DNA of 64,000 bases from an uncultured Planctomycetia bacterium (GCA_964650515.1 CAZYUB010000011.1:4798-68797); one strand, 5' to 3'; counted from the first letter of the stretch, positions 1,023 through 61,867 are shown. Made by a program: numbers and translations. Notes: generated by a model not told the origin, from the letters alone.

Positions 1023-1025
1023 TAT

Positions 1026-5276: not shown

Positions 5277-6074
5277 TTATTGATGGGCCGCCTCCGTCAG
5301 TTTTTGAACGTATTCGCCTACATTGCGTATGAACCGCCTCTTCCCGGAATTCCTCTCGATCTCTTTGACTATTGCAGAGCCGACTATCACCCCGTCGGCC
5401 GCACCGCATACCTGCTTTACCTGCCCGGGGCTCGATACGCCGAATCCGACGCACACCGGGAGTTTCGAATGCCTCTTGATGAGCTTCACCCTTTGCGCAA
5501 GCTCCGCGGGCAATGATGACCTCGCGCCGGTTATCCCTGTAAGCGAGACATAATATATGAATCCCCTCGTCCTGCCCGAGACAAGCTTTATCCTCTTAGC
5601 GGTGCTCGTCGGGCTCAAAAGGAATACGGTCGCGAAACCCTTCTTCCTCGACGGGGCGATAAGCTCGGCCGACTCTTCCGGAGGCAAGTCGGGTATAATG
5701 ACGCCGTCGACGCCGCTCTTCGAACAATCCGATACGAACCTGTTTACGCCGTATTTCAGTATCGGGTTGTAATAGCCCATGAGGACTATCGGTACCTCGG
5801 TCTTCTTCCTGAGCTCTTTAACGGCGGCGATTATATCTTTGAGCTTAGTGCCCCTCTTAAGCGCCCTTTCGGACGATAACTGTATCGTGGGGCCGTCCGC
5901 CACGGGGTCGGAGAACGGGACGCCGAGCTCTATTATATCCGCGTCGCGCGACGCGAATTCGAGGACAAGCTTCTTCGTGTTCGCCAGGCCGTAATCGCCG
6001 GCTGTGAAGAAAGCTATCAGCGCTTTTCGTCCGTCTTTCTTAAGTTCCCTGAATTTTTTATCTATCCTGTTCAT
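5277..6074 (-). CDS. trpA: Tryptophan synthase alpha chain
   Basis: 265 aa; ...IELGVPFSDPVADGPTIQ... canonical TrpA motifs. Confidence 0.93.
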   Translation of the reverse strand: MNRIDKKFRELKKDGRKALIAFFTAGDYGLANTKKLVLEFASRDADIIELGVPFSDPVADGPTIQLSSERALKRGTKLKDIIAAVKELRKKTEVPIVLMGYYNPILKYGVNRFVSDCSKSGVDGVIIPDLPPEESAELIAPSRKKGFATVFLLSPTSTAKRIKLVSGRTRGFIYYVSLTGITGARSSLPAELAQRVKLIKRHSKLPVCVGFGVSSPGQVKQVCGAADGVIVGSAIVKEIERNSGKRRFIRNVGEYVQKLTEAAHQ

Positions 6075-6075
6075 A

Positions 6076-7260
6076 TTATTTTAGAAGCATCCGTGAGGCC
6101 ATGTCCACGTCCTTATCGCCCCTGCCGGAAAGGCAGACGACCACTAGGTCGCTCTTCCTGAGTTTCTTCGATATCTTCGCGAGGTACGCGATCGCGTGGG
6201 ACGATTCCAGGGCCGGTATTATGCCTTCGGTCTCTGACAACATTCGAAAGGCGTCCAATGCCTCGCTGTCCGTCACGGATACGTATCTTGCCCGTCCCGT
6301 TTCCTTGAAATATGCGTGCTCGGGCCCTACGCCCGGATAATCGAGCCCTGCGGAGACGGAGTGCGCTATCTTTACCTGGCCCGCATCATCCTGCAGCAGG
6401 TAGCTCTTGCTTCCGTGAAGGACGCCGACCTCGCCCCGTTCGAGAGTGGCCGCGTGCATTCCGGTCGAAAGCCCTTTTCCCGCCGCTTCGACGCCTATGA
6501 ACTTCACGTTCCTGTCGCCGATGAACCTGTAGAAGAGGCCCATGGAATTCGAACCGCCGCCTACGCACGCAATAAGGTAGCCCGGAAGCCTGCGCTCCGC
6601 CTTAAGTATCTGGTTCCTGGCCTCCGCGCCTATGACCGACTGGAAATCCCTTACCATCATAGGGAAAGGGTGCGGCCCTGCGACCGAGCCGATGCAATAA
6701 TGGGTGTCCCGGACGTTCGTGACCCAGTCCCTCATCGTCTCGTTCATAGCGTCTTTCAGTGTCCTGCTGCCGCTCGTGACGGTAGTTACCTTCGCCCCGA
6801 GCAATTTCATCCTGAAAACGTTCAATGACTGGCGGCGTACGTCCTCTTCGCCCATGAAGACCTCGCACTCAAGCCCGAAAAGCGCCGCGACAGTCGCGGT
6901 GGCGACGCCATGCTGCCCTGCCCCGGTCTCGGCAATGATCCTCTTCTTGCCCATTCTCACTGTAAGCAGGCCCTGGCCGAGCGTGTTATTTATCTTATGG
7001 GAGCCCGTATGGAGCAGGTCTTCCCTCTTCAGGTAGATCTTCGGGCCCTTCAGGAATTTACTAAGGCGTCGGGCGTTATAGAGCTTGCTCGGCCTTCCGG
7101 CGTATTCTTCGAGGTAATACCGTAACTGCTCGGAGAATCTCCTGTCCTTTTTTGCGGCCTTATAGGCGGCTTCAAGCTCTTCAAGCGCCGTCATCAGCGT
7201 TTCGGGGACGTATTTTCCTCCGAAGACGCCGAAATGGCCCTTTATGTCAGGCTGTTTCAC
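6076..7260 (-). CDS. trpB: Tryptophan synthase beta chain
   Basis: 394 aa; HTGSHKINN (PLP-Lys), GGGSNSMG motifs. Confidence 0.95.
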
Positions 7261-7360
7261 GTCATAACCCCTTTATTTTGACTGAATAAAATAGAAGTTT
7301 ATCACAGAGTAGAGGTATAGTCAATTCATATTACTGGCGGGGAGCGTGCCGGAAAGAAAG

Positions 7361-7648
7361 TTACTTGATTATTATCTCGGAGTTCTCGCGTGTTTTGCTT
7401 TGAAGCTTAAGGCGTTCGTCTATGACGGATCGGAGTATATCGCCCTTCGTTGATGGTTTTATTTGCATGGATGGGTCATCCTTCATCTTCAGGGCAAGCG
7501 CGAGTTTCAGGTCCTTGTCGAATATCGGCTCTCCGTTGACCGTGGCTATCACCTTACCCGCTGAAACTGCGGAAGCCGGCTTTTCAGCCGGCCTCCCGCA
7601 TCCTGCCACAATGAACGCAAGCAACAATATTGCCGCCGCGCGTATCAC
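7361..7648 (-). CDS. Small lipoprotein with SurA N-terminal-like chaperone domain
   Basis: 95 aa; signal peptide + lipobox (AGCG); VIATVNGEPIFDKDLKLAL...SVIDERLKLQ resembles SurA/PpiD N-domain; start abuts stop of giant gene (coupled). Confidence 0.55.
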   Translation of the reverse strand: MIRAAAILLLAFIVAGCGRPAEKPASAVSAGKVIATVNGEPIFDKDLKLALALKMKDDPSMQIKPSTKGDILRSVIDERLKLQSKTRENSEIIIK

Positions 7649-10600
7649 TTAATTTCCCTGGTTCCAGGTTCCTGCGCCCACACCTTCGAACGTGCCGGCT
7701 TCGGTTCCGGTGTAAGTACCGCCGGCCTGGCCGTTGAAACCCACGTCTCCGGGCGCGGTGCCCGTTACATTAGCGGTCCACTGACCCTCGTTCCATTGTG
7801 TACCGGTAAGGGTGGCGTTTATATTCCCGTCGTTAAAATTCAACGACCAGTTCTCTCCGCCGGTATAACCGGAATAGCTGCCTCCGAAGAGCGCGGCCCA
7901 TATGCCGTTCATGTCGAGCGCGCTCTGGGCATAGAAGCTTATGTCCATGCTGCCCGTTATTGTTCCCGCGGCGCCAAGCGGGCCGTTGCCTTTCAGAAGG
8001 GCCGTATAAGTCTCCGTAATAGGCATATTTACCATTTCGGCGATCGCGTAATTATCGAAACGAAGCACGCTTGTATCCAGCTCCGCGAGGTCTACCCATT
8101 CGCCTACGAACGCGGCCTGTATGGTGGTATCGACACCCGCTTCGTAGAAACCGGAGATGTCGCCATTTACGCGTCCGACTTTCATCGCCGTGTATTCCTC
8201 GGCCTCGGGATCCCAATTCTCGGGCGCAAGGTATATACCGCGGTAAGAGCCGGTAACATCGCCTTCTTTTACGCCGTCATTGTCATAGTCCCAGGCGCCG
8301 TTGGTTCCATAAGCGCTAAACAGGACATAGCTGTCCGTGGTGTCATCTTCAGAAACCACGCCGCCCAAAGCCGTCCGCCATACGCCATCGGTGACGACGG
8401 CATCCGACTGCGCGAGCATTACGCCGCTGACAATGCCCCAGGTGTCATACCCCTCTATATTTGCGATAGAGGCCTGGGCTATCTGCGCTTCGAGCGGATT
8501 GCCGTTGATGCTTCCTTCGCCGTACGCGTTGAAAGCGTCCTCGGCGACTGCCATATTATTCGTAAGTTCCGCCGGGTCCATGTCTATATACTGCATTACG
8601 ACGTGAGGCGTCCAGGTGCCGTCGGCCTCCCATATGCCTACCTGCATGTCTTCGCCGTAATCCAGGTATTCATTCGGCATAGCGCAATAAATGCCTTCCG
8701 CATCTCCGCGCAGTATGCCCGCCTGGTATCCGTCTTCTCCCGGAGAAATGAACAAAGCTGCGGTATACATATGGGACAGGACCGACATATTACCGGAACG
8801 GGAGGTGCCCACGGTCCATCCCCAGAACGCGCCTTCGCCGTCAGCCGTTGTGTCAGACCCGTCATAACCGTTGAAGCTGTTGATCTCGGATCCTACGAGA
8901 TATGAGCTGCGGTCCAGGTACCCCTCGTATTCTCCCATGGCGATCACATCAAAGGCCCCGTTAGCCCACCAATCCTGCGCGGTGCTTCCTATATTGCCGT
9001 AGGTGATGCCGTCCTGCATGAATCCTTCGCCGTAAACACCTATACCGCCGCTGGACGAACCGCTCAGGGTAAGGTCCTCGGACTGCGCTACGCCAAGCGA
9101 AAGGGCTTCCCATGCGTCTTCTTCCGTATCATATGCCCCGAGCATCTTGCCGTTAAATGAGATCAGGGTTGTGTTTGACAACACTCTTCCGGATACATCG
9201 GCGCTGAAACCGCCGTCTTCCCATGATGTGCCGTCGATGAAAGCGAGCGTATACGTCGAGTAGAAGCCGTCTCCCTCATCTTCCACATCGCCCATTACGG
9301 CGGTCCATGCGCTCTCGGGATCGCCGACAAATACGCCCGAACTGCCCGCTCTCCAGACGCTCCAATCCTGGTCTACCAGGCCCATCGTCTCTCCGTCGAG
9401 CGTGCCTCTTATATCACCGCCGATGACACCGTAAATATCATCCGAATCGATCACTTCGCTTGTGCCCGAGAGCAGCACCGTAGGGTCGTAATCCGTCGGC
9501 ATGTCGAGGAAATACGCGAGTTTTCCTTCCGCCCCGTACATCCCGATAGACGGGTAGAAATCGCCGTTAAAATAATCTGAGTTGCCGGCGCCGTCTACCG
9601 ACATGATATAACCGGCGCGGTTGCCTTCGTCCGTCTCCCTTATATAAATAGAGAGAAGCATGCCCTTAAGCCTGTTGTCGAGCGAGGTGCCTCCCATGGT
9701 CCCGTAAGCGACGGCGTTGTCATCCGTTATTACGTAGAAATCGGAAGCCCATAATTTGTATTCCGGAACGCCGTCCTCGTTATAATCGGGATTCCAGAAC
9801 CCTCCGATAAGGGTCATGTCCGCGGGCCCCTCCCAGATATTGCCGGACCCTCCGAAGACGCCGTCCATATATCCGTAATCGCAGTTGAATCCGCCGTAGT
9901 AATCCTCTACATAACCGAACGCGCCGTCCATCAGGATGCCTGAATAAGCGAGCGGCTCCGTCTTCCATTCTCCTATAGCGGCTCCGGCCCATGAAGTATA
10001 GTCATAGTATTCGCCGCCGTCATAATAGTAGTGGTCTGTCGCCGTTCCGCGGAGGTCGCCGTCTATCCTGCCTATCATGCCCTCTTCGAGGTCGATGAAC
10101 GCACCGGCAACGTCCGCCGAGATCGCGTTGTCGCCGTAGATAACGTTCTTGGCAGTGATAAGCAGGCGCTCGCCGTAACCTTCTTCAGAACTGCCTAACG
10201 CGAGGCCGTTCTCGGCAACGTCGCCGTCATCCTTCTCGAACCACCCGCCCATCTTCACGTTAAAGATGCCCCACGGCATGTCCGGCAATGAGTAGCTATA
10301 CGCTTCTTCAATACCGCCGTAGATCGTGCCGTTACCGGCGAACGAGCCGCCGACCTGTATATCTCCCAGGTATTCCTCATTGATGTTTTCGTATCTCAGG
10401 TCCGCGGGTGCGAAGGAATAGCCCTCTACAGTCTCCGTCGACAGGTCCATCGAGACCTGCCATAGGCCTATCCCGTCATAATACTCTCCTTCGGCGCCGC
10501 CCTTCATGATGCCGACCCTGCCGTCCGGGGCCGCGAATATCGCGATGACCCTGCCGTCCGACATGATCCCATCCTTCCAGATGCCGGTCGTGAAGCCGTA

Positions 10601-13600
10601 ATACGCTCCTCCGTCAAGGGTCGTATTATCGTCTTTTTCCACATTATTGCTTTCGATCTCGGTATTCCAGAACTTCGGCGCGCCGTCATCGTAATCGTAC
10701 CAGAAACCGCCTATAGCGCGGGCGATGAACGACTTATTATTCCACCAGTCCTCCACGGTCGAGCCCATAAGCCCGTGTTCTTCGCCGGCCCAGGATATAT
10801 AATCTTCCTCATTATCGGCATAAAGGCTGCTCTTGCCTTCGCCCCAATACCCGCTGAATGTCAGCCTCTTTCCGTTCCATGTTCCGGATCCCGAGCCCAT
10901 CCAGGTCCCGTCGTCGTAATATGCGCCGTCTATGTCGCCGGATATGGTTCCCATCCTCGTGCCGGTCAGGAATACGCCGTCGAGCGAGCCGCTGAACCAT
11001 TCCTCTCCCTGCCCGTTGACATCCGCTATCCAGTATCCGTAATCATTCTCAGCCGTACCGTATGAGTCCTCATACGACAGGTAGGAAGCGTCTTCCGGAG
11101 CGGACCCGATAAGTTCCGCCAGCGGAGTGGACGTATCCCATGTCCCGTATTCGGACGTGCCGCCGAGATAATTCCCGTTGCTGTCATACGAATAGGAGTA
11201 TGAGTATGTGGACCCGTCATCGTAGTAATTCGTGTAAGAATACTGTTGGGTATTATCTACATAGTGATATTCGGATGTATAGCCATAGGTGTTATTATCA
11301 TAGTATTGGTAATAGTAATTTCCGCCGTCATTGAGCTGGTACTGGCCGTTGACGTATAACCCGGGATTGTAGCAACCGAACGAGTCGTTGCCGCCCATCT
11401 TCGCGTAGAATATTCCGTCAGTTACTTCCGGCAGCTCATACTCTCCCGTAAGCCTCTGGCTGTATATGCCCCAGTCGTATGATGTATGGTTGGCGTAGTC
11501 CACTATGCCGGCCGTATAAAGCTCATCCTGACCGCCGAAGAACCCTTCACCGGAGTAATTGCCTTCAAGCCTCCCCTCGCCCTCTTCGGACCATATCGAA
11601 TCCGAAAGTTCCCCCGCGCTTATGCCGGCTATGACGGGTGTTATATTGGTGTCATCTCCAAAATCACCTTCGAACATATAGGCGCCGGCCAGGTTGGAAT
11701 ACGCGCCCTCGACCCTTCCGGATTTCACGCCAGCATAGCCGTCGGGATTTATGTATATGATGCGCGCGGACCCTTTTATAGCACTGTCCTTGCCTGTGAC
11801 CGAGGATAGCCCGTAATATGCGCCCTCCTGCCCCTCATCGCTGAACTCCCTTCTGTCTTCCGATCCGTTAACATCGCTTGAGAAGTCGGTCATCCAGACG
11901 AAATCTCCGAGAGAGCCGGATTCGTCCTCTTCCATCTCGCCTATCGAAACAAGATAGAATCCGTCCTCACCCCAGAGGTCTCCGACGGTCCCTGCGAGGC
12001 CGCCGATGTGGCCGGCATGCTCGAACCCGCCGTAATCATCGTAATCGTATTCGTCATACTCGTACTCATACTGGTACGGGGTATACGCGCAATTGTACAA
12101 ATAGGCGCTGGATGAAAGCTCCTGCTCTACGAACCCTCCCGCTCCCGTACCTTCTACGCCTTCTCCCGCATACGCGAGTATAGTGCCGTAATAGGCGCCG
12201 AGATGGGATGTGTCAAGATAGGAACCCGAGATATCCAACCTTAAGGCGCCGTTAAGGTCGTCAGCCCCTTCGATCAGTGAGAAGAAATACCCGTCATTAT
12301 AATCACCTCCGGCGACAGCGCTCCAGTTCGTAAGGCCGTTCTGGTTCATGTATCCGCCGTAATGTGCTTCGCGCCAGATACCCCAATCCTGGCCCTCGAT
12401 CTTGGCCATCTGCCTGTCGAATTCCGTTTCGAAATACCCGTTGCCGCCGTCAAAGGCGAAATTCAGGTTGCCATAACCCCATCCCTCGACCGTGTTATAT
12501 TCCGTTTCCGGGTCAAGTTGAGCCATCGGAATGACGTAAAGGTCGCCGCTTCCTGCCATGTCGCCCCAGTAGTATCCATCCATTTCGTTTGCTGTGCTGG
12601 AACCGGAGAGGACTCCGAACAGGTTGCCTGCCATGCCGGACGGGTCTATATATATAGAAGATACGACGGTGTCCCAGCTGTGCATGATACCGCCGCTCCA
12701 GCCGTAGAACACGCCTCCGTCCACGCCTTCGCCCTCGACGTTACCGATGAAGACCCTGTTATACGGGTTATCATATGTGCCGGCGGCATCCATTGAAATA
12801 GTGCCGGACCACTGTTCGCTCAAAGGCGTAGTGCTCGAAAGCGCCAAATTGAAAAAATTGTTCTCCGAGGGCCCTTCATAGCCGAATGCGCCTTCGATCA
12901 TGCCGTTCATCGTAACGGGAGCGACGATAACTTCTTCCCCGCCACCGCTGCCCGTATTGCCGCCCTCGCCGGGGCCTATTATGTCTGTAAAGGGTTTGTC
13001 GGAAAATACGTTATTGGGGTTGTTGTCCGGATTCTCGTTGCCGCCGGTCCCGCCGCCGGTGTAGCCCTCAGGCCCGCTGTACCCCTCGGCCTCTCCGCCG
13101 AATTCCCAGCCCTCATGCCAGTTCGACCTCTGGTCGTCTGAAGGCGCCAGGGGATTGCTGATATTCCCGTTCCCGTCGACCGTGGAGCCGGTCCCCATCG
13201 GTACGTTTTGGGTGGTCCCGGATATCAGGCTTCTGAGCACGCCGTTGCCTTCCTCGAAGTAAGCATTGGTAAGGTTCGGCAGTATATTCATGAAAAGCAC
13301 GGTGCCGCGGACACATGCTACCGCGTTGGGGGTCTTTACCTCGAACTTCGAATTACCCTTGAGCTTTTCCACCTGTGCCCTGAGCTTGCCGCCCGTAGAT
13401 TCAAAGAGGTTTTCGTATTCGCCATTGCTTCCGTTCGACAGTTTCGAGATCGTGACGTTGGAATTCTGCTGCAGCGTTATGATATTCCCGTTCTCGACCT
13501 TGAATTCCGCCTTGCCGTTCTGCCTCGTCTCGATAGAATCGCCGGTCTTCACCGTCTCGTTGAGTTTAGCGTCATGCCAGGCCTTTGAGCCCTTGTTCTT

Positions 13601-14344
13601 TATCCTGACATCTCCTGCCAATTTAACGATCACGGCCTTCATCTCTCCCGCCTGGCTGTATCCTTCGGCAACAGGACGCTTGCCTGATGCGATGTCGGAA
13701 GATGCGGCCTCGTTTTTCATGACCGATGTATCGGCCTCATGCGACCTCTTCTCTGAGGCGAGCATCATCCTCGGTGAGGAAGGCTCGTTATCCGCAGCGA
13801 CTACGGAGACCTCCCCGCCTTTTATTTCGACCTTCTTATCCGGAGAGGAAGGGTTCGACAGCGAGTACCTGCCGTTGAGCACGGCTACGGCGGTCGAGGA
13901 TTTCTGGAATATTACCACTACGTCCGTCCCTTTTACGGAACCGTTCGCGTTCGGCGTGTTTATGGTAAAGCTGTCCTTTGCAGAGGATTTTGATATAATT
14001 GCCCTGATCTTGCCGCGTTCGACGTTCAAAACGGCGCTTATCCTTTTGCCGTCGTCACCGGTCCTGTACTCCGCAACATCCAGTTTTGTCTTTTCCGCAA
14101 GCCTGACCACAGACCGGTCCGCGAAGGTTATTTCGGCCTTTGAGGCGCTCTTCGTGCGCACGGAGTCGCCTGCTTCGATCTCCGATCCGAGCACGGCCGC
14201 AGACGAAGACATGGATCCCGCCTTGAAAAGGTCTACACTGCCCTCAAGCGAGGTTATGCTGCCTATACCGGAGGCAAATGCCGTTGAGCTCCCGAGTATA
14301 AGAAGGGCTGCCAGTGCAATGGTCTTGATGCTGCGGTCTTTCAT
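7649..14344 (-). CDS. Giant secreted protein (2231 aa): signal peptide, two tandem FecR domains, then ~1800 aa highly acidic Gly/Tyr/Asp/Glu/Trp-rich region with divergent internal repeats
   Basis: SPase-I type signal (TAFA|SG). FecR-like segments (..FTINTPNANGSVKGTDVVV.. and ..FEVKTPNAVACVRGTVLF..). Remainder almost devoid of K/R. Recurring modules (EGAYYG..DGRVIAIFAAPDG.., GDIDGAYYDDGTW, IGRIDGDLRGT / IGGDIRGTLDG) and DxDxDG-like loops. SD AAGGAGA 8 nt upstream. Confidence 0.8.
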   Translation of the reverse strand: MKDRSIKTIALAALLILGSSTAFASGIGSITSLEGSVDLFKAGSMSSSAAVLGSEIEAGDSVRTKSASKAEITFADRSVVRLAEKTKLDVAEYRTGDDGKRISAVLNVERGKIRAIISKSSAKDSFTINTPNANGSVKGTDVVVIFQKSSTAVAVLNGRYSLSNPSSPDKKVEIKGGEVSVVAADNEPSSPRMMLASEKRSHEADTSVMKNEAASSDIASGKRPVAEGYSQAGEMKAVIVKLAGDVRIKNKGSKAWHDAKLNETVKTGDSIETRQNGKAEFKVENGNIITLQQNSNVTISKLSNGSNGEYENLFESTGGKLRAQVEKLKGNSKFEVKTPNAVACVRGTVLFMNILPNLTNAYFEEGNGVLRSLISGTTQNVPMGTGSTVDGNGNISNPLAPSDDQRSNWHEGWEFGGEAEGYSGPEGYTGGGTGGNENPDNNPNNVFSDKPFTDIIGPGEGGNTGSGGGEEVIVAPVTMNGMIEGAFGYEGPSENNFFNLALSSTTPLSEQWSGTISMDAAGTYDNPYNRVFIGNVEGEGVDGGVFYGWSGGIMHSWDTVVSSIYIDPSGMAGNLFGVLSGSSTANEMDGYYWGDMAGSGDLYVIPMAQLDPETEYNTVEGWGYGNLNFAFDGGNGYFETEFDRQMAKIEGQDWGIWREAHYGGYMNQNGLTNWSAVAGGDYNDGYFFSLIEGADDLNGALRLDISGSYLDTSHLGAYYGTILAYAGEGVEGTGAGGFVEQELSSSAYLYNCAYTPYQYEYEYDEYDYDDYGGFEHAGHIGGLAGTVGDLWGEDGFYLVSIGEMEEDESGSLGDFVWMTDFSSDVNGSEDRREFSDEGQEGAYYGLSSVTGKDSAIKGSARIIYINPDGYAGVKSGRVEGAYSNLAGAYMFEGDFGDDTNITPVIAGISAGELSDSIWSEEGEGRLEGNYSGEGFFGGQDELYTAGIVDYANHTSYDWGIYSQRLTGEYELPEVTDGIFYAKMGGNDSFGCYNPGLYVNGQYQLNDGGNYYYQYYDNNTYGYTSEYHYVDNTQQYSYTNYYDDGSTYSYSYSYDSNGNYLGGTSEYGTWDTSTPLAELIGSAPEDASYLSYEDSYGTAENDYGYWIADVNGQGEEWFSGSLDGVFLTGTRMGTISGDIDGAYYDDGTWMGSGSGTWNGKRLTFSGYWGEGKSSLYADNEEDYISWAGEEHGLMGSTVEDWWNNKSFIARAIGGFWYDYDDGAPKFWNTEIESNNVEKDDNTTLDGGAYYGFTTGIWKDGIMSDGRVIAIFAAPDGRVGIMKGGAEGEYYDGIGLWQVSMDLSTETVEGYSFAPADLRYENINEEYLGDIQVGGSFAGNGTIYGGIEEAYSYSLPDMPWGIFNVKMGGWFEKDDGDVAENGLALGSSEEGYGERLLITAKNVIYGDNAISADVAGAFIDLEEGMIGRIDGDLRGTATDHYYYDGGEYYDYTSWAGAAIGEWKTEPLAYSGILMDGAFGYVEDYYGGFNCDYGYMDGVFGGSGNIWEGPADMTLIGGFWNPDYNEDGVPEYKLWASDFYVITDDNAVAYGTMGGTSLDNRLKGMLLSIYIRETDEGNRAGYIMSVDGAGNSDYFNGDFYPSIGMYGAEGKLAYFLDMPTDYDPTVLLSGTSEVIDSDDIYGVIGGDIRGTLDGETMGLVDQDWSVWRAGSSGVFVGDPESAWTAVMGDVEDEGDGFYSTYTLAFIDGTSWEDGGFSADVSGRVLSNTTLISFNGKMLGAYDTEEDAWEALSLGVAQSEDLTLSGSSSGGIGVYGEGFMQDGITYGNIGSTAQDWWANGAFDVIAMGEYEGYLDRSSYLVGSEINSFNGYDGSDTTADGEGAFWGWTVGTSRSGNMSVLSHMYTAALFISPGEDGYQAGILRGDAEGIYCAMPNEYLDYGEDMQVGIWEADGTWTPHVVMQYIDMDPAELTNNMAVAEDAFNAYGEGSINGNPLEAQIAQASIANIEGYDTWGIVSGVMLAQSDAVVTDGVWRTALGGVVSEDDTTDSYVLFSAYGTNGAWDYDNDGVKEGDVTGSYRGIYLAPENWDPEAEEYTAMKVGRVNGDISGFYEAGVDTTIQAAFVGEWVDLAELDTSVLRFDNYAIAEMVNMPITETYTALLKGNGPLGAAGTITGSMDISFYAQSALDMNGIWAALFGGSYSGYTGGENWSLNFNDGNINATLTGTQWNEGQWTANVTGTAPGDVGFNGQAGGTYTGTEAGTFEGVGAGTWNQGN

Positions 14345-14362: not shown

Positions 14363-15871
14363 TTAAAATTTGTACTCGATGCCGAGGCTGTAAATGCTCC
14401 TGTCGTAATCGTATACCGCTATATTTGAATGGTCCTTTACGTATGTATACCTGAATTGGAGCTCGGCTTCCTTCCAGAAGTTATACCCGAGCATGGATGA
14501 TAGCGTATATGTCTGGTCATCCCTCCTGACACCGAAGATCGAGTTCGTGTTCGAGAAATCCTGCAGGTAGACGTCGCCGGCAAGGCTCGCCTTGAATCTC
14601 TTCAGGAAAGGATACAGGACCGTTGCGGTGATCCTGTTGCCGAGGTACTCCCAGTTCTTTCCCTTCGTGTCTTCCTTGTTGACACCGTAGCGCAGTCCGA
14701 GGAAACCCTTGTTCTCTGCGAAGAAGAAGTAGTATCCGAGCCCGCCGCCGTAGTCGTTGGAATTGCGGTCCTCATCAGGTATGAACGGGTCCCTCGCGAA
14801 ATCTTTCTTCTTGTAATCGAAATTTGTCTGCAGCATATGGTTCCGGGCGAATATATAATTGACTACAGGGCTTGCGCTCAGCGTTGTCATGTATTTGGAT
14901 TCGCCGACATCGGTATAGTTGTATCCGACAACGACCCCCGCGGTCCCTTTGTCGAGGTAATAGTTAGGCGTCACCGTTACCGTATGGCTCATCACGTCAT
15001 AGAGCCCCAATTTGTTCTGGTGCGCGAAATACATCGAATATTGGCCGTCCACCCCGAACCTTTCGGCGAATTTCTTCCGGTACTGCCCCATGAACGTCAC
15101 GACCTCCCTCCAGTCGCTCTCGTCGCTTATGCCCGACGCGACAGTATCGTCCCCGGGTTTAAGCAGCACGTTCGTATCATACTGGCCTGAAACGTTCAGC
15201 GTGGCCCTGAAAGGCCTTTCTGCCGTCTCTTTCCTTTTCAAGGCATCAATGTATTCGTTCGAAAGCCCGGCTATGTCCGAGTTCGGGTCGAGGATTATGA
15301 TATCCCTAAAGACCTTCTTTGCCTCATCGAATCTCTTCTGTTTTATGTTGGCAAGCCCGATTTGGTAATCCGCCGATTGAGACAAGGAAGTATCGAGCGC
15401 CTTAGCGTTCTCGAAGGAAGTGATCGCCGCTTCATTATCGTTATCCTTGAGCAATACCAGCCCTTTAAGGAATGCCGTCTGTGCCGGCTTAACGTTCTCG
15501 CGTTCCGCCACTTCGATATAGTTTCTCGCTTCCTTAAGGTCTCCGAGCTGGTAGAGGACTTCCACTAATTCGAGCAGGGCCTCCTTTATCCTCGGCGTAA
15601 GGGTAACCGCGTCGACCAGCTGTTTTTTAGCTTCCTTGTAATCCTGCAGCTGCTTATATGTTATACCGAGGTAATATGCCGCAAGCGATGATTTCGGATC
15701 TGTTTCCCTGACTTTCCTGAGGGCTGATGCCGCTTCATCAAAATTCTCTTGTTTGTATAACTTGATGGCCTGTTCCAGTTGAGGATCCGTTTCAGCGATA
15801 AGTAAACCGGGGAGAGTTAGCAATATTGAGACGAAAATTACCGTAAAGGCAGGAAATACTTTTTGCGGCAT
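14363..15871 (-). CDS. Outer-membrane protein: N-terminal TPR repeats + C-terminal beta-barrel (Slam/DUF560-like architecture, inferred)
   Basis: 502 aa; signal peptide; four or more TPR-like helical repeats (AAYYLGITYKQLQDYKEAKKQL...); C-terminal half has alternating aromatic/Gly-rich strands and ends ...SLGIEYKF (terminal Phe, OMP signature). Confidence 0.55.
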   Translation of the reverse strand: MPQKVFPAFTVIFVSILLTLPGLLIAETDPQLEQAIKLYKQENFDEAASALRKVRETDPKSSLAAYYLGITYKQLQDYKEAKKQLVDAVTLTPRIKEALLELVEVLYQLGDLKEARNYIEVAERENVKPAQTAFLKGLVLLKDNDNEAAITSFENAKALDTSLSQSADYQIGLANIKQKRFDEAKKVFRDIIILDPNSDIAGLSNEYIDALKRKETAERPFRATLNVSGQYDTNVLLKPGDDTVASGISDESDWREVVTFMGQYRKKFAERFGVDGQYSMYFAHQNKLGLYDVMSHTVTVTPNYYLDKGTAGVVVGYNYTDVGESKYMTTLSASPVVNYIFARNHMLQTNFDYKKKDFARDPFIPDEDRNSNDYGGGLGYYFFFAENKGFLGLRYGVNKEDTKGKNWEYLGNRITATVLYPFLKRFKASLAGDVYLQDFSNTNSIFGVRRDDQTYTLSSMLGYNFWKEAELQFRYTYVKDHSNIAVYDYDRSIYSLGIEYKF

Positions 15872-15936
15872 CTGCTGAGCCCCTTTGGTTATATTAGGTT
15901 AGTTTTTAAAGATTATGAATGAAGTAGATTTGAATA

Positions 15937-15965
15937 AATATACCATTTGTAGAGGGTTATGTCAA
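15937..15965 (-). promoter_or_regulatory. Near-consensus sigma70 promoter for the OMP / giant-protein / lipoprotein operon
   Basis: Minus strand: TTGACA (15965-15960), 17-nt spacer, TATATT (15942-15937); ~60 nt leader with AAAGGGG SD before ATG 15871. Confidence 0.6.
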
Positions 15966-15976
15966 GTAAATATTTG

Positions 15977-16004
15977 TTGACAAGAGTCGTAAAATTGGTA
16001 TAAT
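15977..16004 (+). promoter_or_regulatory. Near-consensus sigma70 promoter (extended -10) for the PEP-CTERM gene
   Basis: TTGACA (15977-15982), 16-nt spacer, TGgTATAAT (TG 15996-15997, TATAAT 15999-16004); GAGGTAAG SD before ATG 16051. Confidence 0.6.
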
Positions 16005-16050
16005 AATAACAAATTCAGGCCAACCAGCCAACCAAGCGAGGTAAGTTTCT

Positions 16051-16572
16051 ATGAAAAAAATATCATTAATATTTGCGGTATTTACGTGCCTTTTTGTCTC
16101 CTTATCGCCCGCTTACGCCGAATATGACCCGAATTACCAGGGTTTCCAGATGTACACCGTTGCAAGCAATACTTCCTCTTTTGCCGTTTCGGATTTCGAG
16201 CTGGGTTCAACGCCTTATCTGTATATTCAGCTTCCGAACCCTCCCGGGGGGCTTTGGTACTCTGAGGTCGAGAGTGACTGGTGGAACGGTAGCTTGTTCG
16301 AGGGTGATGCCGACAGGACAGGTTTTCAATCGGTATACCATATAGAGCTGACAGGACATGACTGGTCGGATGTTTCCAACGCCGGGACATGGACGATAAA
16401 CGCCGATTATTGGTATAAAATGCTCGGGAGCGGATATGTCATATCCTCCGACTCGGGATATGCTACGTTCACGATGAAGAATACGACTACGGTCCCTGAG
16501 CCTGTTTCGACCATGCTGTTCCTCGCCGGAGGATCGGTGCTTTTCGGAAGGCGTTTGCTGAGACGCAAATAG
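16051..16572 (+). CDS. PEP-CTERM sorting-domain secreted protein (exosortase substrate)
   Basis: 173 aa; N-terminal signal peptide (..SPAYA|EY); C-terminus VPEP-VSTMLFLAGGSVLFG-RRLLRRK = PEP motif + TM helix + basic tail. Confidence 0.8.
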   Translation: MKKISLIFAVFTCLFVSLSPAYAEYDPNYQGFQMYTVASNTSSFAVSDFELGSTPYLYIQLPNPPGGLWYSEVESDWWNGSLFEGDADRTGFQSVYHIELTGHDWSDVSNAGTWTINADYWYKMLGSGYVISSDSGYATFTMKNTTTVPEPVSTMLFLAGGSVLFGRRLLRRK

Positions 16573-16584: not shown

Positions 16585-18480
16585 TCAGGCTATCTTCAGT
16601 ACAATAACCGTCATATCGTCGTGCTGCGGCATTCCTCTGCTGAATCTCTGGACCTCATCCACAAGCTTATCCGATAACTCCTGGGCGGAGAGGCGCCTGT
16701 TGATAAGAGCGGTATCCAATATCCTCTTCTCCCCGAATTCCTTAAGGTTCCTGTCCCGCGCCTCAGATATGCCGTCCGTATACATGACGAATACGTCGCC
16801 TGCCGACACCTTAAACTCGTCAGCGGTAAACTCAGAACCCGGTATTATGCCTATCGGGCTGCCGACCGACTGGGTAAGCGAGAGCACTTCGCCGTTCTCC
16901 TTTACCCATACAAGAGGGTTATGCCCGCCGTTCGAATATTTTACGGTCCTCTCTTTAGGTTTATATATCAGGTATTGAAGCGTCACGAACATCCCGGAGA
17001 CGCCTTCCTCGACTAGCCTGTCGTTTATCGCGGTCATCGCTTCGTCCGGTTCCGTAAAGTCATGCGTTAATCCCCTGAAATCAGCCATTGCCTTCGCCAT
17101 ATACAGCGCTGCGGGCACTCCCTTGCCTGAAACGTCCCCGATGACTACACCGAGCCTGTCTTCCTTTAATTTTATGAAATCATAGATGAGTTTTATGAAG
17201 TCGTAGAAATCGCCGCCTACATGTTTCGCGGGGACGCACTTGACGCCTATCTCGATCCCTATAGAGTGCGGAAGGCTTTGCGGCAATATCGACTGCTGTA
17301 TCCGGCTGGCTATCTGCAGCTCCTTCTCGATCAGGCCTTTCTCGAATTTCGTTATTATGAGCTGGTTAAGCGTGATAGCCGGATAGCAGACACATAGCAG
17401 CAGGAGGATAGTGACATAATCTATCCATATATTGAAGAAAGCGAAAGAGATGTAGGAGATGAGCAGGATCCCCGACAGCATGGCCGCGAAGAGTGCAAGA
17501 CCTTCGACCGGGGTCCTCTTCGGCAGGACGGTCCCGAGCGCGATGCCTATCGCGAACAGTATGAGGAGGATCTCAGGCCTGAAAACCCTGTGTATGAAGT
17601 CCTTCCTTAATATCGTATTGACCGCGCTTGCCCTTATGCCTACGCCGGGATACAGGGTCGACATCGGCGTTGCCCAGAAATCCTCCGATCCCGTGGCCGT
17701 CATTCCTATGATCACGATCTTGTCCTTCAGTATCCCGAGGTCGGTAGACGGCTTCTCCCCGTCCTGCGCCTGTATGCCTGAAAGTGCCACTTCGGCGAAC
17801 GAGAGCCGCTTGAACCGCGCGAACTCTCCCGGATAGTTGATCCACATCATGCTGTTCGCGTCAGTTTGTATCTTCAGCTTTTCGCGCTCGACGCCCGTGA
17901 AATGCGCTGCGGCGAGCATGTCTATCGAGACGTAATCGCTGCCGTCATGCCCTATCGTCAGCGGGACCTTGCGAACCTTTCCATCGGGTTCAACGAGTAT
18001 ATTCACGAAACCGACGCCTTTCGCGCTCTCGCGAAGCGCGGGAAGCGGCATGGTAATATCGCGGGGCTTGATTATATTCTTGCGTATATTATCCTGTGAA
18101 AGGTCAAAGAATGCGGAATAGAACACATTGCCCGTCTTCCTGGTCTGCGCGGCAAGCCTGCTGTCCTCGCCGGGCTTATCTTCCTGCGGTTCGCTGAACA
18201 GGATATCGAATACGATGGTCTTCGGCCCGTAATCCTCTATTATGTCGAGCAGTTCGGCATGGTATCCCCTGTCCCACGGCCACCTGCCGAATGCCTTAAG
18301 GGATGCATCGTCTATCTCGATGATCACTATATCGGGGCTTACGGGACGCGGGCCTCTCAGTTTGAACAATATATCCATGCCCTGGTATTCGGCAAGCTCA
18401 AAAAACCCGAGAAGATAAGCCAAACCGATGACAGTGCAGCATATCAACCCGATATAGAGTCCGCTTTTCTTTTTCATCAT
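16585..18480 (-). CDS. CHASE2 extracytoplasmic sensor fused to PP2C/SpoIIE-type serine phosphatase
   Basis: 631 aa; N-terminal TM then CHASE2-like region (..IVIIEIDDASLKAFGRWPWDR..); central TM segments; C-terminal PP2C motifs (GGDFYDF, VIGDVSGKG, YTDGISEA, DDMTVIVL). Confidence 0.75.
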   Translation of the reverse strand: MMKKKSGLYIGLICCTVIGLAYLLGFFELAEYQGMDILFKLRGPRPVSPDIVIIEIDDASLKAFGRWPWDRGYHAELLDIIEDYGPKTIVFDILFSEPQEDKPGEDSRLAAQTRKTGNVFYSAFFDLSQDNIRKNIIKPRDITMPLPALRESAKGVGFVNILVEPDGKVRKVPLTIGHDGSDYVSIDMLAAAHFTGVEREKLKIQTDANSMMWINYPGEFARFKRLSFAEVALSGIQAQDGEKPSTDLGILKDKIVIIGMTATGSEDFWATPMSTLYPGVGIRASAVNTILRKDFIHRVFRPEILLILFAIGIALGTVLPKRTPVEGLALFAAMLSGILLISYISFAFFNIWIDYVTILLLLCVCYPAITLNQLIITKFEKGLIEKELQIASRIQQSILPQSLPHSIGIEIGVKCVPAKHVGGDFYDFIKLIYDFIKLKEDRLGVVIGDVSGKGVPAALYMAKAMADFRGLTHDFTEPDEAMTAINDRLVEEGVSGMFVTLQYLIYKPKERTVKYSNGGHNPLVWVKENGEVLSLTQSVGSPIGIIPGSEFTADEFKVSAGDVFVMYTDGISEARDRNLKEFGEKRILDTALINRRLSAQELSDKLVDEVQRFSRGMPQHDDMTVIVLKIA

Positions 18481-21830: not shown

Positions 21831-22451
21831 CTAAGATGTCTTTTTAGCTTCCTGTATGAATTCCTTCATGAGTTTCATGCTCTTCCTGCCGGGTGATGAT
21901 TCGACTCCACTCGATACATCTACGGCATACGGCTTTACCTTCCCGATAGCGCCGCGAACGTTTCCCGGTTTGAGCCCGCCCGACAGTATTACGGGCCTGC
22001 CAAGCTTCTTTACGCGCAGGGCCAGGTTCCAATCAAACATTTCTCCCGTACCTCCCGCCTTGCCGGGCCTGTATGTATCAAGCAGGAAGGCGTCAACGTC
22101 ATAGCCGGACAGGCCGTCAAGATACCTTTTTTCCCCTATCCTGACCGCCTTGACTATTTTATAATATTTCTTAAGTTGTTTGCAATAGTTAATCGATTCG
22201 CTGCCGTGGAGTTGGACGCAGTCAAGCCTGCAAATTTTTGCTATCCTCAGCAATTTCCTGATATCTTCATCCACAAAAACGCCTATCAGAGACACGTATG
22301 GAGGCATTTTTGAGGAGATTGACCTTGCCTTCGATACATCTATCCTTCTCGGGCTCTTCGCAAAGACGAAACCGAGCGCATCCGCCCCAAGCCGGCAAGC
22401 GGCCTCGGCATCCTTAAGGTTCGTTATCCCGCAGACCTTTACCCTTACCAA
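21831..22451 (-). CDS. trpF: Phosphoribosylanthranilate isomerase
   Basis: 206 aa; MVRVKVCGIT... canonical TrpF. Confidence 0.9.
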   Translation of the reverse strand: MVRVKVCGITNLKDAEAACRLGADALGFVFAKSPRRIDVSKARSISSKMPPYVSLIGVFVDEDIRKLLRIAKICRLDCVQLHGSESINYCKQLKKYYKIVKAVRIGEKRYLDGLSGYDVDAFLLDTYRPGKAGGTGEMFDWNLALRVKKLGRPVILSGGLKPGNVRGAIGKVKPYAVDVSSGVESSPGRKSMKLMKEFIQEAKKTS

Positions 22452-23221
22452 CCCATGATCCTTTTGATTTCGGCGGGTATGTCGACGGATTCCATGAACG
22501 CGGTGCCTATAAGGACCGCTTTTATGCCTGTATCCGCCAGCGAAAGGATATCTTCGGGGTCCTTTATCCCGCTCTCTGAGATGACTATCTTCCCGGCGGG
22601 CACCTTCGGTATCAATTCCCGCGTCACCTGGAGGTCGACTTCCAATGTCGTCAGGTTCCTGTTGTTGATACCGATTATTTCGGCGTCTATCCCGAGCGCT
22701 TTTTCGAGGTCGCGTTCATTATGCACCTCGACGACCGTATCCATCCCCAGGGACTTCGCTTCGTGGAACAGAGCCTTGAGCATTCCCCTGTCCATAGCCG
22801 TAGCGATGAGAAGGATCGCGTCCGCACCCGCGACAGCCGATTCGAATACCTGGTATTCGGAGATTATGAAATCCTTGCGCATGACCGGCAGGTCGGCGGC
22901 GTCACGGACAGACTTAAGGTCATCTATGCTTCCCTGGAAATATTTGTCTTCCGTTAGGACGGACAATGCCGAGGCCCCGCTTTTCCTGTATATCTTCGCT
23001 ATTCCTGAAGGATCGAAATCGTGCCTGATGACTCCGTGCGACGGCGACGCTTTTTTCACCTCGGCTATAAGGTTAATCCTTCCGCCTTTAGATATTGCGG
23101 ACTTGAATCCCCTGTTCTTTACGGGAACTGCTCGTTTTTCCAGATCTTCAAGAGGAAGGATCTCCTGCGCGCGTTCAAGCTTGTGTTTCTTGTGCTCAAT
23201 TATCTCCTGTAATCCTATCAT
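22445..23221 (-). CDS. trpC: Indole-3-glycerol phosphate synthase
   Basis: 258 aa; IAEVKKASPSHG motif. Confidence 0.92.
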   Translation of the reverse strand: MIGLQEIIEHKKHKLERAQEILPLEDLEKRAVPVKNRGFKSAISKGGRINLIAEVKKASPSHGVIRHDFDPSGIAKIYRKSGASALSVLTEDKYFQGSIDDLKSVRDAADLPVMRKDFIISEYQVFESAVAGADAILLIATAMDRGMLKALFHEAKSLGMDTVVEVHNERDLEKALGIDAEIIGINNRNLTTLEVDLQVTRELIPKVPAGKIVISESGIKDPEDILSLADTGIKAVLIGTAFMESVDIPAEIKRIMGW

Positions 23222-24228
23222 CTGCTTGTGACCTCCTTAAGCTGCTCAAGTTTCTTCAGGCCCTGGCCGGAATCAATAGATTCCCCGGCTATCCTTATGC
23301 CTTCCTTTATGCTGGCCGCCCCATCCGCCGCATATATCGCGCAGCCCGCGTTCATAAGGACGATATCACGATGAGGCCCTTTATCGCCGCCGAGTACAGC
23401 GAGCGCGATCTTCGCGTTCTGCGTGATATCGCCGCCTTTAAGGTCCCCGGGCTTAGCCATCTTTATCCCGAACTCCTTAGGGTTTATCTCATAATTCGTG
23501 ACGTTGCCGCCGTTAAGCTCGGATACCTGCGTCGCATCTGTTGTAGTCACTTCATCGAGCCCGTCATCACCGTGAACGACAAGCGCGTGCCTTGACCCAA
23601 GACGTCCAAGCGCCTCGGCCAACGGCCTCGTGAGCCTGTAATCGTAAACACCGAGAAGTTGGTGTGTCGCATTAGCGGGATTCGTAAGCGGGCCCAGTAT
23701 GTTGAATATCGTGCGGATGCCTATCTCCCTTCTCGGCCCGATCGCGTATTGCATCGCCTTGTGCAGCATTGGGGCGAAAAGGAACCCGATACCTATCTCA
23801 TCGAGGCATCTCGACACGGTATGTTCCTGCACGTCTATGTTCACTCCGAGGGTTTTAAGCAGGTCCGCGCTGCCGCAGTTCGAGGAGACGGAGCGGTTGC
23901 CGTGCTTCGCCACAGCGATGCCGGCGCCCGCCACTACGAATGCGGAAACAGTCGATACGTTGAACGTCTGCGACTCGTCGCCTCCGGTCCCGCAGGTGTC
24001 GAGTATGACGGGGTGTTTTGTCTTTATCTTCGTGGCGTGCTTTCGCATGACGGAAGCGGCGCCGACTATCTCATCTAGCGTCTCTCCTTTCATCCTCATG
24101 GCCGTAAGGAAGGACGCTATCTGCGACGGGAGCGCCTGCCCCGTCATTATCTCCTCCATTGAAAGCTCTATCTCGGGCCTTGAAAGGTCCTCAGACCTTA
24201 CAAGTTTCGCGATCGATTCTTTTATCAT
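23218..24228 (-). CDS. trpD: Anthranilate phosphoribosyltransferase
   Basis: 336 aa; [14 protein letters not shown] motif. Confidence 0.93.
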
Positions 24229-24794
24229 TCGGAAAGCTCCAGGAAGTTCTTAAGCAATCTCTTGCCTTCGGCAGTAAGTATAGATTCCGGATGGAACTGC
24301 ACTCCCCATACGGGATGTTTCCTGTGCCTGAGTCCCATTATCTCCTTTTCCTTCGTCCGGGCGATGACCTCGAGGCAGTCCGGCAATGACTTTCGCTCCA
24401 CTATAAGCGAATGGTACCTGATGGCCGCGAACGGGTTGCGGATCCCCTTGAATATCTCCCTGCCGTTATGGTAGATCAGCGACGTCTTGCCGTGCATGGG
24501 CCTTGAGGCCTTGACTACCCTCCCGCCGAACACCTCGCCGATGCACTGGTGGCCCAGGCACACACCGAGGATAGGCACCTTTCCCGCAAATTCACGTATA
24601 ACAGAGTTGGATATGCCGGCGTCCTTCGGGGATCCCGGACCGGGGGATATTATAATGCACCGCGGCTTGAGGCCCGAGATGGCCCTGACGGATATCTTAT
24701 CGTTGCGGATGACCTTAAGCGCCTGCCCCATCTCGCCGAGGTATTGGACGAGGTTATAGGTAAAGGAATCGTAATTATCTATCATAAGGATCAT
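24225..24794 (-). CDS. trpG: Anthranilate synthase component II (glutamine amidotransferase)
   Basis: 189 aa; class-I GATase with GVCLGHQ Cys site. Confidence 0.9.
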
Positions 24795-26270
24795 CTAAAA
24801 TATCCCCTTCTCCGCGGCTTCTATCGCCTTAATCGTGGCCTTGGCCTTATTGACGGTCTCCTGGTATTCCTTAGCGGGATCGGAATCAGCCACGATCCCC
24901 CCGCCCGCCTGGACGAATGCCTTGCCGCCCTTCATCACTATAGTCCTGATATTTATGCATGTGTCGGTGTTCCCCGAGAAGCTGAAATACCCTACGAGGC
25001 CCGCATAAGGGCCGCGCCTCGTATTCTCGAGCTCCTCGATTATCTCCATAGCCCTTACCTTCGGCGCTCCAGATACCGTGCCGGCAGGGAACGTCGCCCT
25101 GATGACATCGAACATGTCCTTATCGGGCCTTAACTTCCCGGTGCATTCGCTGACAATATGCATCACGTGCGAATATTTTTCGATGGTCATGAGCTCGGAT
25201 ACCTTTACTGTGCCGTATTTGCAGACCCTGCCTATGTCATTTCGGCCGAGGTCTACGAGCATAATATGCTCTGCGCGTTCCTTCACGCTCGACAACAGGT
25301 TCTTCTCAAGGCGTTTCTCTTCGGCTTCGGTCTTGCCCCTCGGTCGCGTACCCGCTATGGGCCTCAACTCCACTACACTGTCTTCGCACCTGACCATGAG
25401 CTCGGGAGATGCCCCTACAAGGGACATCTCCTTCATCTTCAGATAATACATATAGGGCGAAGGGTTTATCATCCTCAGCGAACGGTAGAGGTCGATGCCG
25501 GAACATGATATCTTAGTGCTGAACCTCTGGGACGGCACTACCTGTATAATGTCACCTGCCCTTATATAGCTCTTTGCTTTCCTGACCAGCGCGACGAACT
25601 CATCCTTCGTGAAATTGGAATCTATGCCCTGTTCCGTCGCGCGGATCTTCCTGCGCGCGGCCGCAAGCGGGGCGCCGAGCATCTTTATGAGGCCGTCTAT
25701 CTTCCTTATGGCGGCATCGTACGCCCGCGAAGGATCACCCTCGACGTGGGCGTTCGAGACGACCTTTATCTTGTGCTTCACGTGGTCGAATATCAATATC
25801 GTGTCCGTAAGCATGAAGACTGAGTCCGGCGCGTCGAGCTCATCCGGATTTTTCGACGGCAATTTTTCGAAAAATCTTACCATATCGTATCCCATGAACC
25901 CTACGAGCCCCCCGCAGAACCTCGGAAGGCCGGGGGTATGGACGAACTTATACCTGCCAAGTATGGCCTTCATCTCCTCAAGCGGGTCGGATGACGCGGT
26001 AAAGCGCTTCGTGTTTTCGTCTTCGGTCATCTCTATACCTTCGCCTTTGCTCCTGAATACGAGAGAAGGCCCGGAACCGAGGAAAGAATAGCGGGCTATC
26101 TTCTCCCCGCCTTCCACGGATTCGAGCAGGAAAGAATAGTCCCCCCTGTCGATCTTCATGAAGGCGGAGACCGGCGTCTCCAGGTCAGCCGTTATCTCGG
26201 CATAGACCGGGATAAGGTTGCCTTTTTTGGAGAGGCGGCCGAATTCTTTCCTGGACGGTACGTATTCCAT
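24795..26270 (-). CDS. trpE: Anthranilate synthase component I
   Basis: 491 aa; chorismate-binding family motifs; start overlaps hisI stop by 1 nt. Confidence 0.92.
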   Translation of the reverse strand: MEYVPSRKEFGRLSKKGNLIPVYAEITADLETPVSAFMKIDRGDYSFLLESVEGGEKIARYSFLGSGPSLVFRSKGEGIEMTEDENTKRFTASSDPLEEMKAILGRYKFVHTPGLPRFCGGLVGFMGYDMVRFFEKLPSKNPDELDAPDSVFMLTDTILIFDHVKHKIKVVSNAHVEGDPSRAYDAAIRKIDGLIKMLGAPLAAARRKIRATEQGIDSNFTKDEFVALVRKAKSYIRAGDIIQVVPSQRFSTKISCSGIDLYRSLRMINPSPYMYYLKMKEMSLVGASPELMVRCEDSVVELRPIAGTRPRGKTEAEEKRLEKNLLSSVKERAEHIMLVDLGRNDIGRVCKYGTVKVSELMTIEKYSHVMHIVSECTGKLRPDKDMFDVIRATFPAGTVSGAPKVRAMEIIEELENTRRGPYAGLVGYFSFSGNTDTCINIRTIVMKGGKAFVQAGGGIVADSDPAKEYQETVNKAKATIKAIEAAEKGIF

Positions 26271-44535: not shown

Positions 44536-44556
44536 ATTTCGGATTATACCACCCGG

Positions 44557-61670: not shown

Positions 61671-61705
61671 ATTTCGGTTACGATCCTCATGTTTCCTCCT
61701 CGTTC

Positions 61706-61859: not shown

Positions 61860-61867
61860 AAATCCTT

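Follow-up and report, generated by a model that had tools for sequence, protein, structure and literature searches.

The window, by which we mean the entire analysed stretch of 64,000 nucleotides (~54% GC), carries ordinary chromosomal core genes, including rpsO-pnp, ftsK, recA, alaS, and his and trp genes. An intergenic region at positions 15872-16050 separates a three-gene cluster for envelope proteins on the minus strand from a single gene on the plus strand. The first gene of the cluster (14363..15871, minus strand) encodes a protein of 502 aa, hereafter the TPR-barrel protein, in which Pfam identifies TPR repeats at the N-terminus and an outer-membrane barrel at the C-terminus (DUF2860-like, 24.0 bits versus a cutoff of 22.9). 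This protein has 246 homologues, most of them from Omnitrophota; orthologues with 90-97% identity were identified in five Candidatus Omnitrophota metagenome-assembled genomes, and one with 71% identity in another. The second gene (7649..14344, minus strand) follows after an 18-nt gap, has the Shine-Dalgarno (SD) sequence AAGGAG, and encodes a secreted giant protein of 2231 aa, in which two N-terminal FecR domains are combined with a long G/Y/D/E/W-rich region lacking a family match. The third gene (7361..7648, minus strand), the GTG start of which overlaps the stop codon of the giant gene (TAAGTG, 0-nt gap), encodes a putative 95-aa lipoprotein with the lipobox IVAGC and weak SurA-N/EpsD-like similarity. 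A search against solved structures returned generic TPR matches for the TPR-barrel protein and nothing for the FecR N-terminus. The FecR proteins encoded behind the TPR-barrel genes in the window and in loci L014-L021 vary widely in length (838, 931, 1224, ~1685, ~2000, 2231, 2348, and 2498 aa), and their long C-terminal regions are G/Y/D/E/W-rich, without a Pfam family or solved structure.

On the opposite side of the intergenic region, the plus-strand gene at 16051..16572 encodes a 173-aa PEP-CTERM protein (TIGR02595, 17.3 bits versus a cutoff of 16) with a signal peptide, a C-terminal VPEP motif, a transmembrane stretch, and the basic sequence RRLLRRK; its C-terminus, VPEPVSTMLFLAGGSVLFGRRLLRRK, thus comprises the PEP motif, the hydrophobic helix, and the basic cluster. 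It is convergent with the gene of a CHASE2-SpoIIE/PP2C sensor phosphatase (16585..18480, minus strand), which in many relatives is located directly upstream of the TPR-barrel gene and its promoter. No cognate exosortase was found among the genes of the 64-kb window.

The intergenic region contains two divergent matches to the sigma-70 promoter consensus, which we named P_omp (minus strand, facing the envelope genes) and P_pep (plus strand, facing the PEP-CTERM gene). P_pep consists of the -35 hexamer TTGACA (15977..15982), a 16-nt spacer, and the extended -10 element TGgTATAAT (15996..16004; TG at 15996-15997, TATAAT at 15999-16004), i.e., 12 out of 12 consensus positions plus the extended -10. 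P_omp consists of the -35 hexamer TTGACA (15960..15965, minus strand), a 17-nt spacer, and the extended -10 element TGgTATATT (15937..15945, minus strand; TGG at 15945..15943, TATATT at 15942..15937), which amounts to 11 out of 12 positions plus the extended -10. Both -35 hexamers match the consensus at 6/6 positions, and the -10 hexamers at 6/6 (P_pep) and 5/6 (P_omp), with A2 and T6 present; both spacers are within the sigma-70 criterion of 17 +/- 1 bp, and both promoters have TG at -15/-14. The core elements do not overlap and face outward, with the -35 hexamers separated by the 11-bp A/T-rich gap GTAAATATTTG (15966..15976), which spans positions -36 to -46 in both promoters, the expected location of an UP element. 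A purine preceded by C is found 6-7 nt past each -10 hexamer, giving predicted transcription starts at ~16011 (plus strand) and 15930/15931 (minus strand), ~81 bp apart. The promoter geometry thus defines a predicted 5' UTR of ~40 nt for the PEP-CTERM mRNA (16011..16050, plus strand), with the SD sequence GAGG (16038-16041) 9 nt before the ATG at 16051, and a predicted operon leader of 59 nt (15872..15930, minus strand), with the SD sequence AAGGGG (15885..15880) 8 nt before the ATG at 15871. An earlier note on this DNA had described both promoter sequences, their spacers, and the 11-bp separation of the -35 elements, and direct reading and scoring reproduced all of these exactly; the good SD sequences that it had placed downstream of each promoter are the two listed above, 8-9 nt before the ATG codons, and its AT-rich spacer of 180 bp measures 179 bp with 33% GC.

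We compared these matches with Markov-1 sequences of the window composition, where a site was defined by at least 11 out of 12 hexamer positions. The 64-kb window contains five such sites versus 0.3 expected, and three sites with TG versus 0.017 expected; the 9-mer TGGTATAWT occurs four times versus 0.57 expected. In 20,000 trials with 179-bp sequences of local composition, two or more sites were obtained with P = 5e-5, and not one of the 20,000 random sequences contained two sites both with TG. These local-composition simulations, together with the conservation described below, rule out a chance origin of the pair in A/T-rich DNA. Two further explanations of the region were rejected. The data do not support an origin of P_pep by inverted duplication of P_omp: the inverted repeat of 18 nt reflects the TGGTATAWT that they share and their A/T richness, and the similarity ends there. 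Nor does the region appear to be an A/T-rich landmark such as a replication origin, as the cumulative GC skew is monotonic over the window.

The intergenic region was aligned among six close genomes, comprising the window and loci L001, L011, L003, L002, and L004. As a neutral reference we used 4-fold degenerate sites of the adjacent gene, which have a mean pairwise difference of 0.42 and of which 77% (76/99) vary among the six genomes. The four hexamers and two TGn motifs vary in 2 out of 30 columns, compared with 23 out of 39 columns in the remaining spacers and discriminators (Fisher p = 4e-6) and with the 4-fold sites (p = 3e-12). The P_pep -35 hexamer is invariant, while 9 of the 13 columns of the spacer and 6/6 columns of the discriminator of the same promoter vary; its extended -10 varies in one of six hexamer columns and one of three TGn columns, and the resulting variants TACAAT and TGaTATAAT keep T1, A2, T6, and TG. 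The extended -10 of P_omp is invariant in the six genomes and in L005. The spacer lengths of 16 and 17 nt are constant throughout the close clade, and the few substitutions, in this clade and in the orthologous loci, fall at tolerant -10 positions (TATAAT to TACAAT; TATATT to TATACT, TATCCT, TATGCT, or TATAGT); the change from TGg to TGa in the close clade is likewise of a type that sigma-70 promoters accept. The pattern of variation in the six genomes thus looks like that of working promoters rather than of a generally conserved block, and it shows purifying selection acting on exactly the promoter-defining bases. Low variation was also observed in the 11-bp gap between the -35 boxes (2/11 columns) and in the P_omp leader at 15872-15930 (10/59 columns; Fisher p = 1e-13 versus the 4-fold sites), and the P_pep leader at 16011-16050 varies in 19 out of 40 columns, with the SD sequence and start codon of the PEP-CTERM gene conserved.

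The phylogenetic depth of P_omp was assessed using a homologue search with the 502-aa TPR-barrel protein and inspection of 200 nt upstream of the respective genes in 18 loci, which span 100% to 45% protein identity. A P_omp-like promoter ending 45-92 nt before the start codon was identified in 16 of these loci, with the common pattern TTGAC[A/C/G], a spacer of 17-18 nt, and T-A-T-x-x-T; the exceptions at -10 are TACACT in L022 and AATATT in L021, the latter being the single orthologous variant that does not keep T1, A2, and T6. The -10 is preceded by TGn in 14 of the 16 loci, the other two being L016 and L022. No good promoter match was found at the P_omp position in the upstream regions of the two remaining loci, L019 and L020. 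The promoter is found regardless of the identity of the upstream gene. The usual upstream neighbour of the TPR-barrel gene in relatives is the CHASE2-PP2C gene, and in L005 and L015 P_omp begins a few bp past the stop codon of this co-directional gene, the distance being 8 bp in L005. In L023 a terminator-like hairpin precedes the promoter, and in L016 and L022 another divergent gene lies upstream. In all nine loci with recorded Pfam matches for the downstream gene, the gene after the TPR-barrel gene encodes FecR domains. P_omp is therefore part of the conserved Omnitrophota envelope module, and its recurrence in loci down to ~45% protein identity marks it as an ancient element of the TPR-barrel/FecR module across this phylum.

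The distribution of P_pep is narrower. The PEP-CTERM gene and P_pep are present in all five close relatives (L001, L011, L003, L002, and L004). In L014, where the barrel protein is 75% identical, the PEP-CTERM orthologue (45% identity, E = 1e-45) is accompanied by the divergent promoter TTGACA-17-TACTAT, with the same -35 hexamer and a -10 lacking TG; here too the -35 hexamers stand exactly 11 bp apart, even though six of the 11 bases between them are different and the leader length has changed from 65 to 73 nt. Neither the PEP-CTERM gene nor a second promoter was found in L005, L013, L015, and L023, which shows that the plus-strand motif goes together with a gene for it to transcribe. The gene is probably also present in the P0013 locus, and a locus with 65% barrel identity has an unannotated divergent gene for a 169-aa protein at the equivalent place. 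This patchy distribution means that gain and loss of the PEP-CTERM gene cannot be ordered. In L022, where the barrel protein is 74% identical, the PEP-CTERM gene is replaced by a 152-aa Exosortase_EpsH-like ORF (582-1040, minus strand), which hints at a recurrent link between the TPR-barrel/FecR module and the exosortase/PEP-CTERM system.

The stop codons of the convergent PEP-CTERM and CHASE2-PP2C genes are 12 bp apart (16573-16584), and no terminator-like hairpin was found near this interval; therefore, transcripts from P_pep should run antisense into the sensor gene, and transcripts of the sensor gene into the PEP-CTERM gene. It is also conceivable, though unlikely, that P_pep, a predicted strong promoter facing inward toward the sensor gene without a terminator, insulates against or antagonises read-through from it.

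The predicted leader of the envelope operon is A/U/C-rich and free of G for ~49 nt, and no substitution among the five relatives brings in a G. It contains the motif CTTTAAAAAC, which is also found in L014 and L015 and is kept in lineages with a barrel protein down to 64% identity; the corresponding motif in L023 is CTTTAAAAAT. An Rfam search of the region and both leaders gave no match at the gathering threshold and none even at E <= 1. The leader folds are no more stable than those of shuffled sequences (z = -0.33 and -0.20), with no significant secondary structure in the predicted PEP-CTERM 5' UTR, and a known regulatory RNA in the leaders was rejected given the Rfam result and the unstructured folds. 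In the lineage without the PEP-CTERM gene, a small hairpin is found at the leader start (GTAACC...GGTTAC in L005, 7930-7955; GTAACT...AGTTAC in L013, ~3926-3952), the two versions differing by an apparently compensatory change; such a hairpin is also listed in L022 at ~1208-1230. The L005 leader has a fold z-score of -2.1, and its 5' hairpin is not common to the window leader. The simplest reading of the conserved gap and leader is generic A/T-rich, UP-element-like DNA combined with an unstructured, A-rich, translation-enhancing leader.

Downstream of the envelope genes, trpB is located 100 bp past the 95-aa gene and is preceded by its own promoter, TTGACT-17-TGaTAAACT (7296..7324, minus strand), which is conserved in L001, L005, and L006, with the hexamers, the TG, and an upstream TAATAT block invariant. 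Since trpB has its own conserved promoter, the P_omp transcription unit most simply comprises the three envelope genes, and P_omp is unlikely to be the main route for trpBA expression; no terminator was found after the 95-aa gene, hence read-through into trpBA is possible. The trp genes themselves are split between trpE-G-D-C-F (26270..21831) and trpB-A (7260..5277), two blocks on the same strand ~14.5 kb apart, between which lie genes for a PilZ protein, an M48 peptidase, a DinG-like helicase, the CHASE2-PP2C sensor, the PEP-CTERM protein, the TPR-barrel protein, the FecR giant, and the lipoprotein. The module is likewise followed by a trpB-like (PALP) gene in L016 and, according to blastn and alignment, by the trpB upstream region in L001, L005, and L006; this split arrangement is therefore old.

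Promoters of the same kind occur elsewhere in the window. Its intergenic DNA amounts to 2 kb in 11 gaps of at least 40 bp, and about five of the other gaps hold an extended -10 with a recognisable -35 on the same strand as the neighbouring gene, upstream of trpB, rpsO, a solute-binding-protein gene, and cinA, and, lacking TG, of recA. The pattern TGnTAnnnT has a 6.8-fold higher density in intergenic DNA than in coding sequences, an enrichment that is partly compositional. The normal promoter type of this organism therefore seems to be the extended -10 sigma-70 promoter, of which the P_omp/P_pep pair is the best-scoring case in the window. The statement of the earlier note that most genes of the window have no obvious promoters was, consequently, too strong; its description of strong divergent promoters as uncommon holds insofar as they are rare, with the exception of a second pair at 44543-44585. 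This pair occupies a 58-bp gap (44536-44593) and combines TTGACA-16-TGgTATAAT on the minus strand (44570..44543), ending 7 nt before the ATG at 44535 of the solute-binding-protein gene, with TTGATT-17-TATAAT on the plus strand (44557-44585), ending 8 nt before the ATG at 44594 of a LigT-like gene. These two promoters overlap one another, and the mRNAs expected from each would be leaderless or nearly so. Similarly, TGcTATAAT upstream of cinA ends 7 nt before the ATG at 40624. In another part of the window, a tRNA-Arg(CCG) gene (61783-61871, minus strand) lies inside the 5' end of a 501-aa ORF (60366..61871) that has a TTG start and no family match and is directly downstream of a XerC/D-type tyrosine recombinase gene (61868..62755); the start of this ORF is probably over-extended.

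Taken together, we consider that the 179-bp region contains two functional back-to-back extended -10 promoters of the housekeeping sigma-70 type that transcribe the envelope operon and the PEP-CTERM gene, a reading to which, as far as sequence comparison can tell, we assign a probability of about 0.8. Position, geometry, SD sequences, and, most importantly, the phylogenetic footprint all agree with the assignment of the two promoters to the giant-protein operon and the PEP-CTERM gene that the earlier note had proposed, and both motifs are very likely to function as the promoters of two divergent transcription units. The motifs with their rarity and geometry, the selection on the promoter-defining bases, and the layout of the operon are shown directly by the sequences, and from these we infer the position of the start sites, the strength of the promoters, an absence of regulation, and any coupling between P_omp and P_pep.

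A point to be weighed against this reading is the conservation of bases outside the core elements. Both the 11-bp gap and the operon leader vary less than neutral sites do, so that constraint must extend past the core promoter elements, possibly to a regulator site. The promoters would then be real but regulated, either through a protein or small RNA binding the gap and the G-poor leader, or through mechanical coupling via the shared UP-element zone or supercoiling, with the expression of the PEP-CTERM and FecR proteins linked, which corresponds to the co-ordinate expression and regulatory hub that the earlier note had suggested. In favour of this explanation are the low variation of gap and leader relative to the 77% of variable neutral sites, the fixed gap length in L014 despite its changed bases and leader length, which is the sole and indirect hint of functional coupling, and the persistence of CTTTAAAAAC where the barrel protein has diverged to 64% identity; topological coupling of back-to-back promoters has moreover been documented elsewhere (PMC5175336). 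However, the locus lacks a regulator gene, the dyad formed by the -35 boxes has no second exact match in the window, the gap sequence is not conserved outside the close clade, and P_omp occurs in the same form at loci without a divergent partner. The leader, for its part, is unstructured and belongs to no Rfam family, and both A/T-rich DNA upstream of a -35 box and A-rich leaders enhance the function of promoters and ribosome-binding sites in a generic way. We therefore regard regulation or coupling as unlikely. A more specific proposal, in which the 11-bp geometry and the G-free leader form a coupled switch that ties the PEP-CTERM surface protein, as a substrate sorted by an exosortase, to a trans-envelope signalling module of the CHASE2-PP2C, TPR-barrel, and giant FecR proteins that is widespread in Omnitrophota, is a shade less probable still.

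The search of the spacer for transcription-factor motifs that the earlier note had suggested found none, and the dyad TGTCAA-N11-TTGACA corresponds to the two -35 boxes. These boxes do constitute an inverted repeat, with perfect 6-bp arms flanking a partly palindromic core, AAATATTT, and might accordingly be read as the operator of a dimeric transcription factor with only secondary likeness to a promoter. Yet in at least nine loci the half-site TTGACA occurs without its counterpart, each time followed after 17-18 nt by a -10 element, which is the behaviour of a -35 box rather than of a dimer operator; a dyad search of the window allowing up to two mismatches returned this site and one match with two mismatches, as expected by chance. 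With half-sites that are not conserved together and do not recur in the window beyond chance, a palindromic operator was rejected, and, since the statistics and conservation exclude chance matches, we hold either of these explanations to be extremely improbable. Somewhat less remote, but still very improbable, is that P_omp alone works and P_pep is a by-product of A/T richness and mirror-symmetric constraint, the PEP-CTERM gene being expressed weakly or from elsewhere. P_pep is indeed traceable in just seven loci, with barrel proteins at least 75% identical, and its -10 in L014 is the weaker TACTAT without TG. Against this, P_pep matches 12/12 positions plus TG at the correct distance from a conserved SD sequence and start codon, it has an invariant -35 and an almost invariant -10 amid a variable spacer and discriminator, and it is found only where the divergent PEP-CTERM gene exists, being absent from L005, L013, L015, and L023.

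According to the preferred reading of two functional promoters, the RNA polymerase holoenzyme would recognize TTGACA via region 4.2 of its sigma factor, TATAAT or TATATT via region 2.4, and the TG via region 3.0. The rpoD gene is absent from the window. To our knowledge, nothing is known experimentally about the RNA polymerase of Omnitrophota, and the lineage analysed here has neither a cultured model nor mapped promoters. From P_omp (minus strand, start at ~15930) the polymerase would transcribe the three-gene operon encoding the TPR-barrel protein, the 2231-aa FecR-domain protein, and the small lipoprotein, and from P_pep (plus strand, start at ~16011) the single gene of the PEP-CTERM surface protein. 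P_pep is found only where this gene is flanked by the CHASE2-PP2C sensor gene on one side and the module on the other. Since both promoters nearly match the consensus, no activator should be needed, and the default expectation would therefore be strong constitutive transcription; the high expression that the earlier note had suggested is likewise a prediction. Promoter escape can become limiting, and a consensus match does not guarantee the highest activity in vivo. The unstructured A/U-rich leaders and good SD sequences would favour efficient translation. Coupling between the two promoters, if any, would most plausibly be mediated by the negative supercoiling that transcription generates between divergent promoters, a mechanism documented for back-to-back pairs (PMC5175336, PMC4469952).

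The promoter pair is thus a real, well supported, and ordinary example of a well-known kind, without a new mechanism. Its significance is that it provides conservation-backed sequence evidence for the use of the canonical TTGACA / TGnTATAAT promoter grammar in an Omnitrophota lineage, and on this basis the promoters would be expected to function in expression systems of the E. coli type or in vitro. It also helps to define the putative transcription unit of a conserved envelope module, which has kept its own promoter across deep divergence. The pair can aid operon and start-site annotation in Omnitrophota genomes, although its practical value is modest.

Among known promoters, P_pep shares both hexamers and the spacer length with the synthetic tac promoter (TTGACA-16-TATAAT), to which it adds the TG, and both P_pep and P_omp resemble TGn-TATAAT promoters such as galP1 in having the same TGn one base ahead of the -10 and a predicted start at a purine ~7 nt after it; in contrast to tac and galP1, their function is deduced from conservation alone. 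Back-to-back is the commonest configuration of divergent promoters (PMC5175336), and about a quarter of E. coli genes are in divergent pairs (PMC4469952). P_omp and P_pep are like other such pairs in being two non-overlapping promoters that face outward from one short intergenic region; however, classic pairs consist of a regulator gene and its target operon, or of a strong and a weak promoter coupled by supercoiling, whereas here both promoters are near-consensus and neither gene encodes a regulator. FecR-domain proteins encoded next to CHASE2 sensors are known in other phyla (PMC5192318). In the Burkholderia BiofilmReg operon, which encodes a LysM-FecR protein and a CHASE2 histidine kinase (PMC5192318), the gene of a secreted FecR protein likewise adjoins that of a membrane sensor with a periplasmic CHASE2 domain. 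Unlike in BiofilmReg, the output domain of the sensor described here is a PP2C/SpoIIE phosphatase instead of a kinase, the FecR protein has 2231 aa and no LysM domain, and a gene combining TPR repeats and an outer-membrane barrel always precedes the FecR gene. Finally, the FecR operon has its own predicted strong promoter, P_omp, rather than being co-transcribed from the promoter of a regulator.
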